From Candidatus Thorarchaeota archaeon (GTDB lineage Archaea > Asgardarchaeota > Thorarchaeia > Thorarchaeales > Thorarchaeaceae): a stretch of DNA of 54,266 bases. A program made the translations under genes and the position numbers. The stretch lies in NCBI GenBank assembly GCA_019894665.1, contig JAGXOC010000005.1, forward strand, positions 6,724 through 60,989. Direction: 5' to 3'. The notes under the pieces are model-generated. The model saw only the letters and a list, made by a program, of their open reading frames with translations, made no database searches and had not been told where the DNA came from. Below are positions 5,206-18,237 of the stretch, piece after piece (position 1 is the first letter of the stretch; every line of letters starts with the position of its first letter).

Positions 5206-6591
5206 CTACGCGATATCCCGGTCATGTCGTCTTCCAGGTAAATACGTTCTGAATTCTATCCACAATGTAGAGGCGTATTCCTTGGGTTCTCGAATCAGGA
5301 GATAAAAGAATGATGCAAAGAATCTGAGAATTCCACTCAACATAAGCATGACAAAGACCGAAAAATGAGCGTCTCCAAATACATCAAGAATTACTTGTCC
5401 TAGAATACCAGCAATCAATGAACCAATTAGAAAGAATATTCCAGTGAATGTGGCATACACAGCAAGATGTGAACCCCTTTCTTCCTCAGGTGAAATATCA
5501 TAGATGTAAGCTGTTACGGCATTCATACCAGATGCCACGCAGAAACCTGCAAGTATGTTAGCTGCATAAACGTAGTACACATTCTGAGCAAAAGCATACA
5601 GAATAGGAACCAGGAACAGAAGACCTCTTCCTAGAAGTATCAGTGGTTTTCTCCCAACTTTGTCACTAAGTTTTCCAAATGGTACAGTGAATATGACTAT
5701 GGACACAGTCATGGCAGCAGATGCAATTGCAATTTCAAAATTGGAGTTATTCAACCATGTTTTCTGCACGACAATAAAGTATGACCATGCGATGGACATT
5801 GCAAATGAGAAGAACACAGCTATGAAACAGAATCTTCGAAAAGCACCCGGCTTCGATAGTAGTCGAAGGATTGGTGGGAATTTTCGTGGACCATTCTGGT
5901 CTTTCGGATGCTCTTTGATTCTCGTAGATAGAAGGGATGCGATGATTCCTACAATAGCTGTAAAGAAGAATGGTCCATAGTACGCTTCTCTGAATGATTG
6001 TTCATCCAAATGGACTGGGAAAAGGACTGGACCCAGATCTCCGAATAGGCTCCGAAGGATTGGTACGAGTGCTGGTAGTACTGCGATGAATCCTGAGATC
6101 AATGTTGCAGATAGAGATGCAATGTTTGTTGCAAGCCCAAGCTTTCCAAGTTCATCCCCTCTATTTTCCTCATCTATCAGCCCTCCAACTAGTGACAACC
6201 ATGTAGGGATTTGTATACTGAATAGAACTGATTGAATTCCATAGAGGACAATCATCTCAAAAGGTGTTGCAGCCCACAAGAACATGTACACTACTAATAG
6301 TCCAGTCATCAAACCAAATGCGACAAAGGCCTTAGTATTCCTGACTTTGTCAGAAGTTGCACCCCAAACCGGTTGAAGAACTGCTGGAGCTACATTTCCA
6401 ACACTTCGAAACACTCCTTGTTCAACAAAATTCTGAACACCTCTAAGAGCTTCTTGCATATCAATCAGATATGCTTGAATGAACGGTGAGTACAGACCTA
6501 CTCCAAACTGAGTTAGTGCTCCAACAATGTATGCACGTGCAGGTAGTTTCCTGAATTCAGTTTTCTCAGCTGGTGTGGGTGTTTCTGTCAT
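5206..6591 (-). CDS. MFS transporter (start re-assigned to ATG 6591)
   Basis: About 12 hydrophobic segments; MFS motif A twice (WGATSDKVRN, FGKLSDKVGRK). Confidence 0.9.
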   Translation of the reverse strand: MTETPTPAEKTEFRKLPARAYIVGALTQFGVGLYSPFIQAYLIDMQEALRGVQNFVEQGVFRSVGNVAPAVLQPVWGATSDKVRNTKAFVAFGLMTGLLVVYMFLWAATPFEMIVLYGIQSVLFSIQIPTWLSLVGGLIDEENRGDELGKLGLATNIASLSATLISGFIAVLPALVPILRSLFGDLGPVLFPVHLDEQSFREAYYGPFFFTAIVGIIASLLSTRIKEHPKDQNGPRKFPPILRLLSKPGAFRRFCFIAVFFSFAMSIAWSYFIVVQKTWLNNSNFEIAIASAAMTVSIVIFTVPFGKLSDKVGRKPLILLGRGLLFLVPILYAFAQNVYYVYAANILAGFCVASGMNAVTAYIYDISPEEERGSHLAVYATFTGIFFLIGSLIAGILGQVILDVFGDAHFSVFVMLMLSGILRFFASFFYLLIREPKEYASTLWIEFRTYLPGRRHDRDIA

Positions 6592-15064: not shown

Positions 15065-15688
15065 CTATTGTTTGCAGTATCTGAACGTACATCGCTTGTC
15101 ACCAGACGCAATGGTCTCATGACGAGTAAACCCTATCCAGCTCTCAATGACGTCTGCTAGGATGTTTTCATAATCACAGAGTATAGGTCCCAACTCAGGT
15201 TTACCTGCCTCTCGAAGGATATCAAAATAGAGGCATTTCTGAATGTCGAAACCGAAGCATCCCTCCTCCTGGTCGACCTCTACAACTTGAAAATGTTCGT
15301 CGTTGTAGTTCGCTTCGTTGCCCTTTCGTGCCCATTCGACAAACGCTTCCCATGGATTGACAGACTGCTCGAGCGCTGCTACTTCAGCCTTGAAGAAATC
15401 CTGAAGCATTGCCCTGTAAATGGAAATTACGGTTTCTTTAAGCTCATTGAAGGAGGCTCTGACTTCACACATCACATCATCCAATGCCATCACGAAGAGT
15501 GAGTTGACACCGTGCCTTTTTGCGATTGGATCTCTCAGCATATTCTCATAATTGTTGTAATGGATCTTGAACTGTCGGGTGAATAGCTTGTGCAATGGTC
15601 CTCCCTTATCGCCAAACTGTTTATTCAATTCTTGGAGGGTCAACTGGGAAAAGTAATCAATTAATTGCTGAATTGGATCTTCGGCCAT
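15065..15688 (-). CDS. L-2-amino-thiazoline-4-carboxylic acid hydrolase / V4R-like protein
   Basis: FDIQKCLY...ELGPILCDYE...RxxTIAxGxxxCxFRY pattern. Confidence 0.75.
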   Translation of the reverse strand: MAEDPIQQLIDYFSQLTLQELNKQFGDKGGPLHKLFTRQFKIHYNNYENMLRDPIAKRHGVNSLFVMALDDVMCEVRASFNELKETVISIYRAMLQDFFKAEVAALEQSVNPWEAFVEWARKGNEANYNDEHFQVVEVDQEEGCFGFDIQKCLYFDILREAGKPELGPILCDYENILADVIESWIGFTRHETIASGDKRCTFRYCKQ

Positions 15689-15835
15689 TGTGAAATCACG
15701 TTTTCTGAACTTGTGATGTTGCACAGGCATTTTGAAACTATTGGTATGCTTGTCTATGCGGTCTATTGCGGATTTCATTCACTTGAGTAGTAACAATATG
15801 TGACTCCCTTTTGTGACCCTAAGAAGTGGCTCCGC

Positions 15836-15843
15836 TATATATA
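15836..15843 (+). promoter_or_regulatory. Putative TATA box of the micro-ORF array
   Basis: TATATATA ending about 33 nt upstream of ATG 15876, consistent with archaeal promoter spacing and a short leader. Confidence 0.55.
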
Positions 15844-15875
15844 CCAAAACCGAGTAGTATTCCTTGTGAAATATC

Positions 15876-15983
15876 ATGGCTCTAACTATTAACTCTGGTA
15901 ACTCATCTGTGGTGAAGAACAAGAGAGGTCGCGGTGTATCAACCAAGGCCTTGACCTACGCTTACATGACCGTTGTAAGGTGA
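15876..15983 (+). CDS. Micro-peptide 1 (35 aa, MALTINSGNSSVVKNKRGRGVSTKALTYAYMTVVR)
   Basis: Hand-translated; paralogous to the ORFs at 16134 and 16235; shares a 21/23-nt start-region repeat with 16122-16144. Confidence 0.7.
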   Translation: MALTINSGNSSVVKNKRGRGVSTKALTYAYMTVVR

Positions 15984-15988
15984 TAGAA

Positions 15989-16117
15989 ATGGTGTACGCT
16001 GAACGACTTATCTATTGGATTTCTGCTGACCTTGGGGTGACTAGCGACTGGTCACACGGTGGTCACAGTACTGGTCAGTTAGTCTCAGAAACAGCATATC
16101 ATGTGACCAACCTATAG
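15989..16117 (+). CDS. Possible micro-peptide 2 (42 aa, MVYAERLIYWISADLGVTSDWSHGGHSTGQLVSETAYHVTNL), or a structured spacer
   Basis: ATG 5 nt after the peptide 1 stop, with an AGGTGA SD motif overlapping that stop; unrelated in sequence to the other peptides; contains hairpins. Confidence 0.4.
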   Translation: MVYAERLIYWISADLGVTSDWSHGGHSTGQLVSETAYHVTNL

Positions 16118-16133
16118 GAAGTTGTGAAAGATT

Positions 16134-16229
16134 ATGGCTCTAACAAAGAACGATAACCGATCCGTGCAGACGAACAAACGCGTGCTTCAAACCCGCGCTA
16201 TAACTCATGCTTACACCTACAGGAGGTAA
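16134..16229 (+). CDS. Micro-peptide 3 (31 aa, MALTKNDNRSVQTNKRVLQTRAITHAYTYRR)
   Basis: Shares MALT..N, SV..NKR and T[KR]A[LI]TxAY with peptide 1. Confidence 0.7.
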   Translation: MALTKNDNRSVQTNKRVLQTRAITHAYTYRR

Positions 16230-16234
16230 GATGC

Positions 16235-16303
16235 TTGACAAAGAAATACAATTCTCGAAACATCTCAACACGTGCAATTACTGACGTCTACTTTAGAAGG
16301 TAG
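16235..16303 (+). CDS. Micro-peptide 4 (22 aa, TTG start, MTKKYNSRNISTRAITDVYFRR)
   Basis: GGAGGT SD motif 7 nt upstream of TTG; the STRAITDVYFRR tail matches the other paralogues. Confidence 0.6.
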   Translation: MTKKYNSRNISTRAITDVYFRR

Positions 16304-16522
16304 AATCCATGAGTGTCCCGTCTAAACCTTATAATTTTGGTTTGAAATATAAACAAAATTATGATTTTAAGTACGTGATACAAAATAATGCTTTGAGAAT
16401 AACGCTTATAACCAAACCATATAGTAATTATGGTGTGTCCGACAAACTATATTCTGTTTGGAGTCGAACCATATCAGAGTAGAGCAATGCGACTTTCACA
16501 TTAGATTCACACCGGACAAATC

Positions 16523-16603
16523 TCCTATCTCCGAGTCTCCTAAGGTGGAGATTCAGCAGCGGCCCTCGTTTGTGTGATCCGGGGGCCGGTGCACTCCGTA
16601 GGA
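16523..16603 (+). ncRNA. Candidate structured RNA (three-helix junction) in the leader of the MFS gene
   Basis: GAGTCTCC/GGAGATTC (16533-54) and CGGCCCTCG/CGGGGGCCG (16560-88), closed by TCCTAT/GTAGGA; GC-rich relative to the AT-rich stretch upstream. Confidence 0.4.
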
Positions 16604-16728: not shown

Positions 16729-18237
16729 ATGAGCAGGACGAAATCATTCCTTGGCTTGCCAGACGCCACTGATAAAGTCATAAGACTGGCAAAAATAATG
16801 GGAATCTTGGGACCATTAGCCAATGTGATATTTACGCTCAGCTCTACATATTTCGTGATCTTTGTAGCTGAGGCTCTTGGTGGAGGTCCTGGAATGTATC
16901 TCCAGGGTATGGGGCTTGTAGGAACTCTCGTGGTTGTGCAAATGCTTGTCCAGATACTACTCGATTATCCAACCGGTGCAATAGGTGACTGGATCGGCCA
17001 ACGATACATAATCGCGGGTGCACAAGTTTCGTACGGTATAGCATTCCTTCTGATTTCTTTTATCACAGTTGATACACCTTTCCCCTATCTCATAGGTGTC
17101 TATGCACTGATGGGCTTTGCTCAATCACAGTCAAGTGGAGCATGGGGTGCATGGTTCGATAACAACTACCGCATAGCAATGCCTCAAGACACAGACCGGA
17201 AGCAGTACGGAGTCTTCTGGGGTCGTATGGGTATGATCATGGCGATAGTGTCAACCGCCTCGCTGATACCTGGAAGCATCCTAGCTGTTGTATTCTCAAG
17301 GGCTTGGGTGTTTCAAGTACAAGGCGTCTTAGCTTTTGTGTTTGCCATGGCTGTCTTTAGATTAGTACGGGACTTCCCGGAGGTCGAAGATGCGAGGGCA
17401 CAGAACGGCGGACGACCTGATATGGGTGAGTACCTCTCTATCCTGAAAGGTGGTGTCAGTCATCTCTTCAGACATGCTTTCATTCGTTACATCGCAATAG
17501 GAACCATGCTAGCAGTGAGTAGCATCATGGTGTGGGGTAACCTCATTCTGTTCCCGATGTACTACCTCTACCTGATAACGGATGTTGGAGTTGCTAGTTT
17601 CAGAACACTACTCTTCATTCCAGGTATCTTCTCACAGGAGCGTTCAGGTATTTGGTCACGTAGGTTTGAGCCAAAGAAGTGGATTCCACGGTTTCGTCTA
17701 ATGCAGACATGTGGGTTCATTTTCTTCTGGGTGTTTGCAACAATCATGACGTTCTTCCCACCTGCAGCATCTAGTACAAACATCTTGACTCTCTATTGGC
17801 CATTGACAAGTATTGAACTCTTGAGCTTACCAGTGGAGAATATCATACCGATTGTCCTCATATTCGGAACCTTTGTATCGACCAGTTTCTTTGGAGGGTT
17901 TGCTGAGATCTTGACTCAACGAGTACTGTTAGATGTCATTCCGAATAGGATCAGGAACTCGATGTACTCCCTGTTCCCAACTCTCGCAACTCTGTTTGCG
18001 ATTCCACAGATAGCTCTGTTTGGTTGGCTAATAACAATCATTGGATTCCCCTTGACTCTTGCGTGTTGCGGTGTGATATCATTCATGGGTGTCATGTTGA
18101 TTCTACACGGTTTCAGACACGAGCCTCCAGAGATTGATGGTGAAGCTTGGGCGAATGGTGGTGCGGTTGTACCTCCAGAAGAATCTACAGCTGATGTAAA
18201 TGAAGAGATTGTTGATGAGATTCCGCTCAAGGACTAA
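16729..18237 (+). CDS. MFS transporter
   Basis: DYPTGAIGDWIGQR motif A; about 12 TM helices; acidic tail. Confidence 0.88.
   Translation: MSRTKSFLGLPDATDKVIRLAKIMGILGPLANVIFTLSSTYFVIFVAEALGGGPGMYLQGMGLVGTLVVVQMLVQILLDYPTGAIGDWIGQRYIIAGAQVSYGIAFLLISFITVDTPFPYLIGVYALMGFAQSQSSGAWGAWFDNNYRIAMPQDTDRKQYGVFWGRMGMIMAIVSTASLIPGSILAVVFSRAWVFQVQGVLAFVFAMAVFRLVRDFPEVEDARAQNGGRPDMGEYLSILKGGVSHLFRHAFIRYIAIGTMLAVSSIMVWGNLILFPMYYLYLITDVGVASFRTLLFIPGIFSQERSGIWSRRFEPKKWIPRFRLMQTCGFIFFWVFATIMTFFPPAASSTNILTLYWPLTSIELLSLPVENIIPIVLIFGTFVSTSFFGGFAEILTQRVLLDVIPNRIRNSMYSLFPTLATLFAIPQIALFGWLITIIGFPLTLACCGVISFMGVMLILHGFRHEPPEIDGEAWANGGAVVPPEESTADVNEEIVDEIPLKD

Follow-up and report, generated by a model that had tools for sequence, protein, structure and literature searches.

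Can a gap in the gene map of an Asgard archaeon hide a whole family of very small genes, and what might such genes do? The question is raised by a stretch of DNA from a Candidatus Thorarchaeota archaeon of the family Thorarchaeaceae (contig JAGXOC010000005.1 of assembly GCA_019894665.1, positions 6,724 to 60,989 of the forward strand), which has a length of 54,266 nucleotides (nt) and is called the window below; coordinates are those of the window. Asgard archaea are the closest prokaryotic relatives of the eukaryotes. To our knowledge, small proteins are largely missing from the annotation of archaeal genomes, and almost nothing is known about them in the Asgard archaea. A preliminary description of the window had pointed to an unannotated array of four head-to-tail open reading frames (ORFs) with a promoter of its own, and had read three of these ORFs as paralogous basic micro-peptides under selection on the protein.

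The four ORFs lie where they had been placed, behind the box TATATATA at 15836-15843, and the Shine-Dalgarno (SD)-like motifs reported with them are present; the gaps between the ORFs measure 5, 16 and 5 nt if the second, 45-residue ORF is counted from its ATG. Peptide 1 (15876-15983, plus strand) has 35 residues, an ATG start and a net charge of +6 (MALTINSGNSSVVKNKRGRGVSTKALTYAYMTVVR); peptide 2 (16134-16229, plus strand) has 31 residues, also an ATG start and a net charge of +6 (MALTKNDNRSVQTNKRVLQTRAITHAYTYRR); and peptide 3 (16235-16303, plus strand) has 22 residues, a TTG start and a net charge of +5 (MTKKYNSRNISTRAITDVYFRR). Read from the window sequence, the three are paralogues as quoted, with at most one acidic residue each and with a common C-terminal pattern, S/Q-T-x-A-[LI]-T-x-[AV]-Y-x(1-4)-R, that is encoded by different codons. 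The start region of peptide 1, a stretch of 23-30 nt (TTGTGAAATATCATGGCTCTAAC), is repeated ahead of peptide 2 (23 nt there). Internal SD-like sequences (AGGAGGT and AGAAGGT) are made by the terminal Arg codons, 7-8 nt 5' of the next start.

Evidence that these ORFs are genes comes from an alignment of the window with 15 orthologous loci that were retrieved via the gene of an MFS transporter downstream of the array (n = 16 in all); these relatives are kin and not independent samples. Frame disruption in orthologous loci, which had been named beforehand as the sign that would speak against genes, was looked for, and the frames of peptides 1, 2 and 3 are open in 16/16 loci; peptide 3 is deleted in one of the 16 aligned loci (L071). 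The other two plus-strand frames have stops in 9-16 of the 16 loci. The same numbers apply to the three antisense frames, by which antisense coding is ruled out. The pairwise ratio of non-synonymous to synonymous differences (pN/pS) is 0.58, 0.55 and 0.50 overall for peptides 1, 2 and 3, respectively, against 0.92-1.90 for the shifted plus-strand frames. In the C-terminal cores it falls to 0.39, 0.31 and 0.27 at a pS of about 0.6, and the middle parts of the peptides are near-neutral (about 0.8), conservation being confined to 3-8 residues at the N-terminus (MAL..NS) and 12-14 at the C-terminus.

Two further features of the alignments bear on the level at which selection acts. Of 153 distinct copies from all loci, 149 end in Arg, and nine of these 149 use a CGN codon instead of the SD-forming AGR, six of the nine without a following ATG within 14 nt; the residue is thus kept at the protein level and not only as SD for the next cistron. 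In the orthologues of peptide 3, the start codon alternates between TTG, ATG and GTG at one position, 7-8 nt past GGAGGT. All three stop codons are used, and the distance from the motif to the stop (3-5 residues) differs between the peptide classes. One could still suppose that the ORFs are untranslated and that their conservation reflects only DNA or RNA elements. Codons 1-8 of peptide 1 have indeed changed little at any codon position (pN 0.11, pS 0.15), a sign of nucleotide-level constraint at this start, and conservation at every codon position is also seen in the two non-coding blocks A and B described below. Such a supposition is barely credible, however, since it accounts neither for cores with saturated synonymous change and few replacements, nor for open peptide frames where the other five frames are closed, nor for an Arg maintained across codon families and a start maintained as any of three codons. 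By these comparisons, peptides 1-3 are real protein-coding genes under protein-level selection on their C-terminal core, as the preliminary description had proposed.

The array of four ORFs stands in part: three are genes, but the 45-residue ORF (15980-16117 from a GTG, or from the ATG at 15989, plus strand) is judged a conserved DNA element and not a gene. Its paralogous copies read the same DNA in other frames and lengths, its pN/pS is 0.83, and over block B all its codon positions are invariant. Another ORF of 57 residues (16309-16482, plus strand), SD-coupled to peptide 3, is probably not a conserved gene either, with stops in 7/16 orthologues, a pN/pS of 0.80 and no Pfam match.

The peptides are not confined to the window. 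The first 300 bases of the region have two more copies in this genome (82% and 74% identity), and a peptide profile finds 10 members at 5 loci there. In a six-frame search, a profile of 48 sequences gave matches in 69/76 other genomes of the same taxonomic family, in 15/16 genera and with up to 13 matches per genome, and in 0/224 genomes from 29 other families of the phylum; these genome counts are samples per group, and many genomes are incomplete, so that not found does not equal absent. Among 1.84 billion protein representatives there were 32 profile matches at E up to 0.001, and of the 27 that were examined 25 are members of the family and two are unrelated repeat proteins. Most of these 25 (21) have 29-37 residues; the other four have N-terminal extensions (41, 46, 59 and 103 residues in total). 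A scan of all 48 members against curated families gave best E-values of 0.052 in Pfam and 0.09 in NCBIfam, no match in PADLOC, and none in PDB at E up to 10, in agreement with the earlier remark that no known family could be recognized. The strings HAYTYRR, EVLALEAT, YAYMTVVR and MALTTNSR were not found in the literature searched. The portions searched of publications on Thorarchaeota small proteins and on Asgard precursors of ribosomally synthesized and post-translationally modified peptides (RiPPs), which do not extend to the supplementary RiPP and bacteriocin tables, hold nothing on the peptide family (PMC12144867; 10.64898/2026.07.27.741052). As far as these searches reach, the peptides are an undescribed, multi-copy micro-protein family specific to Thorarchaeaceae. 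For peptide 1, AlphaFold2 with the family alignment predicts coil for residues 1-22 and a helix of 11 residues for residues 23-33 (pLDDT, the predicted local distance difference test score, about 75; mean 63). In this model, the conserved S-T-x-A-x-x-x-A-Y would form a helix that is N-capped and presents a small-xxx-small face.

Within the peptide locus, conservation is highest in non-coding DNA. Block A (15786-15875, plus strand) precedes peptide 1 and contains two TGTGAC-type sites (15799-15806 and 15812-15819), the stretch GTGGCTCCGC, the TATA box TATATATA and a leader TTGTGAAATATC that ends at the ATG. It is near-invariant in the three copies of this genome and the 16 orthologues, and across genera it takes the form TAGTCACAA..TGTGAC(n6-7)TGTGACCC(n6)GTGGCT..G..TATATAC. 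A degenerate 33-nt core pattern of block A was found at 119 places in 52/81 family genomes (reversed control: 0), and the promoter/operator design is conserved in 11/16 genera. Of 30 sites inspected, 26 have an ATG at a distance of exactly 31 nt on the 3' side of the pattern, and 23 are followed by a family peptide; the other seven sites lead straight into block B (two), into degenerate ORFs (two), into a different small ORF (two) or to a contig end (one). From this conservation we infer that block A acts as a dedicated promoter of the archaeal type, with operator sites on its upstream side and roughly 10 nt of leader after a putative transcription start; the promoter claimed for the array would thus extend to the whole family. 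An origin of the system in mobile elements or viruses was considered and rejected, as the block A pattern has 0 matches in viral contigs and the paralogous copies within the genome are only 74-84% identical.

A second element of this kind is block B, which with its leader occupies 16037-16133 on the plus strand (block proper 16037-16118). It is composed of GTGAC at 16037, GGTCAC at 16050 and 16061, GGTCAG at 16073, the invariant TTAGTCTCAGAAACAGCATATC, GTGACC at 16103, CTATAG at 16112 and the leader TTGTGAAAGATT; its layout can be described as one palindrome, three direct TGGTCA repeats 11-12 nt apart, one inverted site and an invariant 22-mer. The block is invariant in 13/13 aligned copies. 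GGTCAC has 27 sites in the window, four of them within 296 nt at the block B region. The distance from GCATATCA of block B to TTGTGAAA..ATG is 28 nt, the same spacing as that of TATATATA in block A, and in nine loci block B lies 43 nt upstream of a gene for a GNAT-domain protein of about 990 residues, with or without block A and peptide 1 before it. Because it stands alone before the GNAT gene and has a spacing like that of block A, block B is read as a promoter/operator and not as an attenuator RNA; the attenuator was also rejected because the block is made of GTGAC half-sites and, being invariant, gives no covariation signal. The invariance means that pair covariation cannot be assessed: RNAalifold, run on the 13 copies, returned only invariant helices or helices resembling the DNA palindromes, with 2/23 pairs changed on both sides and none at a start region. 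Block B and its region have no Rfam 15 match beyond chance level (E = 3-9, 11-17 bits against gathering thresholds of 40-110). Block B is thus probably a second promoter/operator, and the array would consist of two transcription modules that the preliminary description had missed, the first made up of block A and peptide 1, the second of block B and peptides 2 and 3.

Several observations on these elements may be added. The GNAT genes with block B are at loci L002, L024-L030 and L037, and the GNAT domain is N-terminal in the protein of about 990 residues; in L024, a peptide-gene start region (MAPAKNSK...) is fused in frame to this protein. At loci L180 and L181 (G147:C4 and G302:C8), block A is followed by a different ORF of 33-36 residues with ...ENLYYEY..., which may represent a further peptide class. 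In some peptide operons (G000:C332 at about 5500-5620, L147, L156) another upstream region (GACACAAACCTTATATG...) replaces block A, which suggests a second promoter type of the family. A genome-wide scan for clusters of the operator hexamers revealed no further convincing member of the regulon. The gene of a ribbon-helix-helix protein (G000:C410:3751-4287; L166, L199) is single-copy, encodes 178 residues and occurs in 67/76 family genomes versus 1/224 elsewhere. With GTCACA sites upstream, this protein was a candidate regulator; it was ruled out because the sites are absent in 5/5 orthologous upstream regions, and also by its presence in genomes without detected peptides.

Related operons show what accompanies the peptides; the loci were retrieved by similarity, and counts of operon types are descriptive, not unbiased frequencies. 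Throughout the sampled genera, block A leads into a peptide of class X (MAL[TA]TN[SN]R...YAY..R), which is usually followed by one of class Y (MA[LF]AK...AY[FL]RR). After X-Y comes a third small gene, Z, with a T-run, or a gene for an MFS_3 (EntS-like) transporter, a distant MFS_1 transporter or a GNAT protein, or nothing (as in L036 and L040). The spacers between a peptide stop and the next start are 5-9 nt, and the MFS_3 gene either begins 5 nt past the peptide stop codon or overlaps with the last part of the peptide ORF. Among 19 loci in five genomes from five other genera, Z was the third cistron in 10, an MFS gene in three and a GNAT gene in one; five were unclear or cut by contig ends. 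The five loci of the present genome are likewise diverse: peptides with MFS_1 downstream in the window (C398), peptide 1 paralogues with MFS_3 (C409) or a large GNAT gene (C1) downstream, an X, a Y and a Z-like peptide (C332), and a single peptide with a hairpin and T-run, 447 nt before a double-GNAT gene (C399). By Pfam, the neighbours of the paralogous loci include GNAT, MFS_3, methyltransferase and DUF6935 proteins. Most related operons carry no large gene, a point that the preliminary description had missed.

Z peptides have 34-42 residues, an acidic, variable N-terminus and the invariant C-terminus [DE]VL.LEAT, and are always encoded by the last cistron after two basic peptides (G000:C332:5172-5288 on the minus strand, L032, L044-L049, L137-L159). 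They were found in 53/76 family genomes versus 0/224 outside, the same range as that of the basic peptides. Every class, be it peptide 1, 2 or 3 or X, Y or Z, maintains its own invariant C-terminus across genera. On this distribution, Z is a second undescribed micro-peptide family, an acidic partner that had escaped the preliminary description. A complex prediction of X, Y and Z, each with its alignment, scored 0.02, with the program output 'no answer', and counts neither for nor against such a complex. In the genus of the window (L032, L035, L038 and L045), X-Y-Z operons lie in conserved synteny: upstream is an ORF of 126 residues that by eye is superoxide reductase-like, and downstream follow a convergent ORF of 200 residues with Cys pairs, an ORF of 189 residues that by eye resembles a RimJ-type acetyltransferase, and lastly a long ORF taken by eye for transketolase.

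The MFS gene of the window (16729-18237, plus strand; 502 residues, Pfam MFS_1 at E = 2.3e-15) is syntenic with the peptide array, which bears out the suspected link with an MFS transporter as a matter of gene order. In 20/20 of its orthologues with at least 70% identity and an available upstream flank, peptides are encoded upstream on the same strand, with at least three matches in 17/20. Among 58 more distant MFS paralogues there were 12 loci with peptide matches, directly upstream (47-586 nt) in only eight.

What, then, could the peptides do? The explanation that we place first, although we would stop short of calling it probable, is that they are trans-acting cationic micro-proteins that dock via their C-terminal helix and are handled by the third cistron. 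Their design would comprise a disordered, poorly conserved, strongly basic N-terminus and the motif S-T-x-A-[ILV]-x-x-A-Y-x(1-4)-R, which reaches the very C-terminus and is probably folded as a short helix. Block A would drive peptide 1 and block B peptides 2 and 3, with GTGAC-type operator sites common to both; these common sites in dedicated promoters point to one regulon, which would take in the peptides of the window, the paralogous peptide operons, the two MFS transporter types and the GNAT acetyltransferases. Acting in trans, the cationic effectors would dock with the C-terminal helix onto a partner, and the variable last cistron (acidic Z, MFS pump or GNAT) would neutralize, export or modify them; in the window this handling would fall to the syntenic MFS gene. 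The interchangeable third cistron suggests this effector-plus-handler logic. That many operons are peptide-only and end in T-runs speaks for products rather than leaders, and since peptide 1 and the C399 peptide are stand-alone units and every class has its own invariant C-terminus, action in trans is favoured over that of pure leaders.

Known systems offer partial parallels. Ibs/Sib and Ldr/Rdl of enterobacteria are multi-copy type I modules in which hydrophobic membrane toxins are paired with antisense-RNA antitoxins. They share with the Thorarchaeal peptides the several paralogous loci per genome, the conservation across a taxonomic family and the high nucleotide conservation at the promoter and start; the Thorarchaeal peptides, however, are basic and hydrophilic and have an acidic peptide as candidate counterpart. 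The 14-residue leader peptide peTrpL of Sinorhizobium meliloti is described as acting in trans in the antibiotic-induced control of an efflux system (PMC7968998). It is tiny and operon-5', like the present peptides, and its trans role, linked to multidrug efflux, would be a further parallel; unlike them it is bacterial, unrelated in sequence and works with a small RNA.

Several points weigh against trans-acting effectors with dedicated handlers. The peptides are very hydrophilic and have no signal peptide, which would make an MFS protein an unusual route of export. The window's own MFS gene is separated from the array by 425 nt that include a further conserved element (block C, see below), and it could form a transcription unit of its own. 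Conservation that is vertical throughout the family, with synteny fixed, does not fit a warfare toxin, and the confidence of the AlphaFold2 model is low, as its mean pLDDT indicates. Moreover, arrest peptides too are characteristically variable at the N-terminus and conserved at the C-terminus as far as the stop.

This resemblance leads to a different explanation, which we regard as unlikely, though as the main alternative: the peptides would be cis-acting leader or arrest peptides. Their nascent C-terminal motif, lying in the exit tunnel, would respond to a small molecule by stalling the ribosome close to or at the stop, and would so control the coupled next cistron. The near-neutral middles and the conservation up to the last residue would be expected of such peptides, as would lengths of 22-38 residues, which fit the ribosomal exit tunnel as its capacity is generally understood. 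The tight spacers with SD sequences inside the last codons, the constant position of the peptides at the operon 5' end before interchangeable MFS and GNAT genes, and the type II loci, where the MFS_3 start is so close to the peptide stop or overlaps the ORF, agree with it as well. MFS and acetyltransferase-type genes are under leader-peptide control in bacteria, and examples of arrest or leader peptides include the bacterial erm, cat, cmlA and mef leaders, TnaC and SpeFL, and the fungal arginine attenuator peptide. These resemble the present peptides in size (20-40 residues), variable N-terminus, C-terminus conserved to the stop, position at the operon 5' end before efflux or acetyltransferase genes and tight coupling; they differ in that Thorarchaeal operons are mostly without a large downstream gene, have three peptide classes in series and an acidic partner, and yielded no alternative RNA structure. 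Indeed, most operons hold peptides only and then terminate (the 10 of 19 loci with Z in the five other genera), and peptide 1 precedes an independent promoter module, block B, instead of a coupled gene. The RNAalifold analysis of the 13 copies gave no covarying alternative pairing that would tie a peptide ORF to the downstream start, and the motif-to-stop distance that varies by class and the use of all three stop codons also count against arrest. Were arrest nevertheless the mechanism, these would be the first conserved-peptide arrest ORFs known in archaea, with C-terminal S-T-x-A-I-x-x-A-Y..RR nascent-chain sensors arranged serially after a single promoter under operator control and switching on pumps, acetyltransferases and an acidic effector; we hold this to be an unlikely outcome.

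The transporters and acetyltransferases could also be explained if the peptides gave rise to exported products. They would then be RiPP precursors, with maturation enzymes encoded elsewhere, or would serve without modification in signalling or as antimicrobials, with the MFS proteins as exporters and the GNATs for tailoring or self-protection. Tandem small cationic paralogues with a conserved core that bears Tyr and Thr, recurring beside MFS_3 (of the 'secretion effector' type), MFS_1 and GNAT genes, would suit such products, and two peptides plus a small third gene resemble the operons of two-peptide bacteriocins. Yet Pfam searches of the neighbours detected no radical SAM, YcaO, LanM-type or ATP-grasp gene beside the window array or the paralogous loci examined, in keeping with the earlier statement that no canonical RiPP maturase lies nearby. 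The polarity of leader and core would be the reverse of that in most RiPPs, with a variable N-terminus and a fixed C-terminus; the peptides lack Cys as well as a signal or double-glycine leader and are of very low hydrophobicity; the core is conserved over 15/16 genera in stable synteny and is not strain-variable; and most loci have no transporter. Multi-peptide and leaderless bacteriocins, such as the two-peptide class IIb, aureocin A70 and garvicin KS, are alike in their tandem cationic, leaderless paralogues of about 30 residues and in a small third gene or transporter in the operon. In contrast to these, the Thorarchaeal peptides are dominated by N, S, T, K and R and are hydrophilic, not amphiphilic or hydrophobic, with only one 11-residue helix predicted; no ABC transporter was seen at the loci examined, and their presence in 69/76 genomes is vertical and not strain-variable. 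We therefore consider exported products an improbable explanation.

Composition alone would allow another function, that of intracellular, stress-induced binders of nucleic acids or ribosomes, which would coat a polyanion, with the acidic Z as a buffer and the tie to MFS and GNAT genes being one of co-regulation only. The charge (+5 to +6 net, and no more than one acidic residue), the presence in each genome of several co-regulated paralogues under a conserved TATA promoter that is judged strong, and the vertical conservation throughout the family are in line with this. On the other hand, Pfam, NCBIfam and PDB searches revealed no resemblance to known ribosomal or chromatin proteins, and the tight translational coupling to MFS_3 in several genera would go unexplained, so that such a role appears decidedly less likely than that of effectors with handlers.

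Between peptide 3 and the MFS gene lies block C (16470-16600, plus strand), a conserved non-coding element. It contains a G+C-rich hairpin of 13 bp (16556-16592), 4/13 pairs of which show compensatory changes on both sides; some orthologues have an insertion that forms a second small hairpin. Block C has no Rfam match, no second copy in this genome and no counterpart in the gap of the C399 locus; judged from its position and pairing, it may be a 5' untranslated region element or a small RNA of the MFS gene.

To the left, the array is bounded by a divergent ATC_hydrolase-like gene (15065-15778, minus strand). One database member of the peptide family, the protein of 103 residues mentioned above (P0018), combines the first 68 residues of this neighbour (66% identical to the window copy) with a peptide-1-like tail; the junction lies at the common residues ...FVMAL... 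and could stem from a chimeric assembly or a rearrangement. The protein was rejected as a sign of an invertible segment, since the window (15480-15500) has only ATGGC common to both places. Other Pfam families among the window neighbours, besides ATC_hydrolase-like and MFS_1, are a/b-hydrolase, 3HCDH, DUF362, a zinc-ribbon protein, CofE and Topo VI B, the last two of which are indicative of an archaeon. Genes for tRNA or tmRNA were not found in the window.

The sequences taken by themselves thus reveal a lineage-specific system with up to 13 genes per genome, at least three peptide classes, an acidic partner family and interchangeable third cistrons, whose role may be that of an effector/handler module working in trans or that of arrest peptides working in cis. 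In the first case, with effectors that the third cistron handles, a new module of physiology or defence based on peptides would have come to light. In the case of arrest, the peptides would represent a new mode of gene control in archaea, akin to the control by upstream ORFs in eukaryotes and found in a relative of the eukaryotes. Either way, a defined operator motif and a defined peptide motif are now at hand for a conserved regulon that gene callers miss in these genomes.

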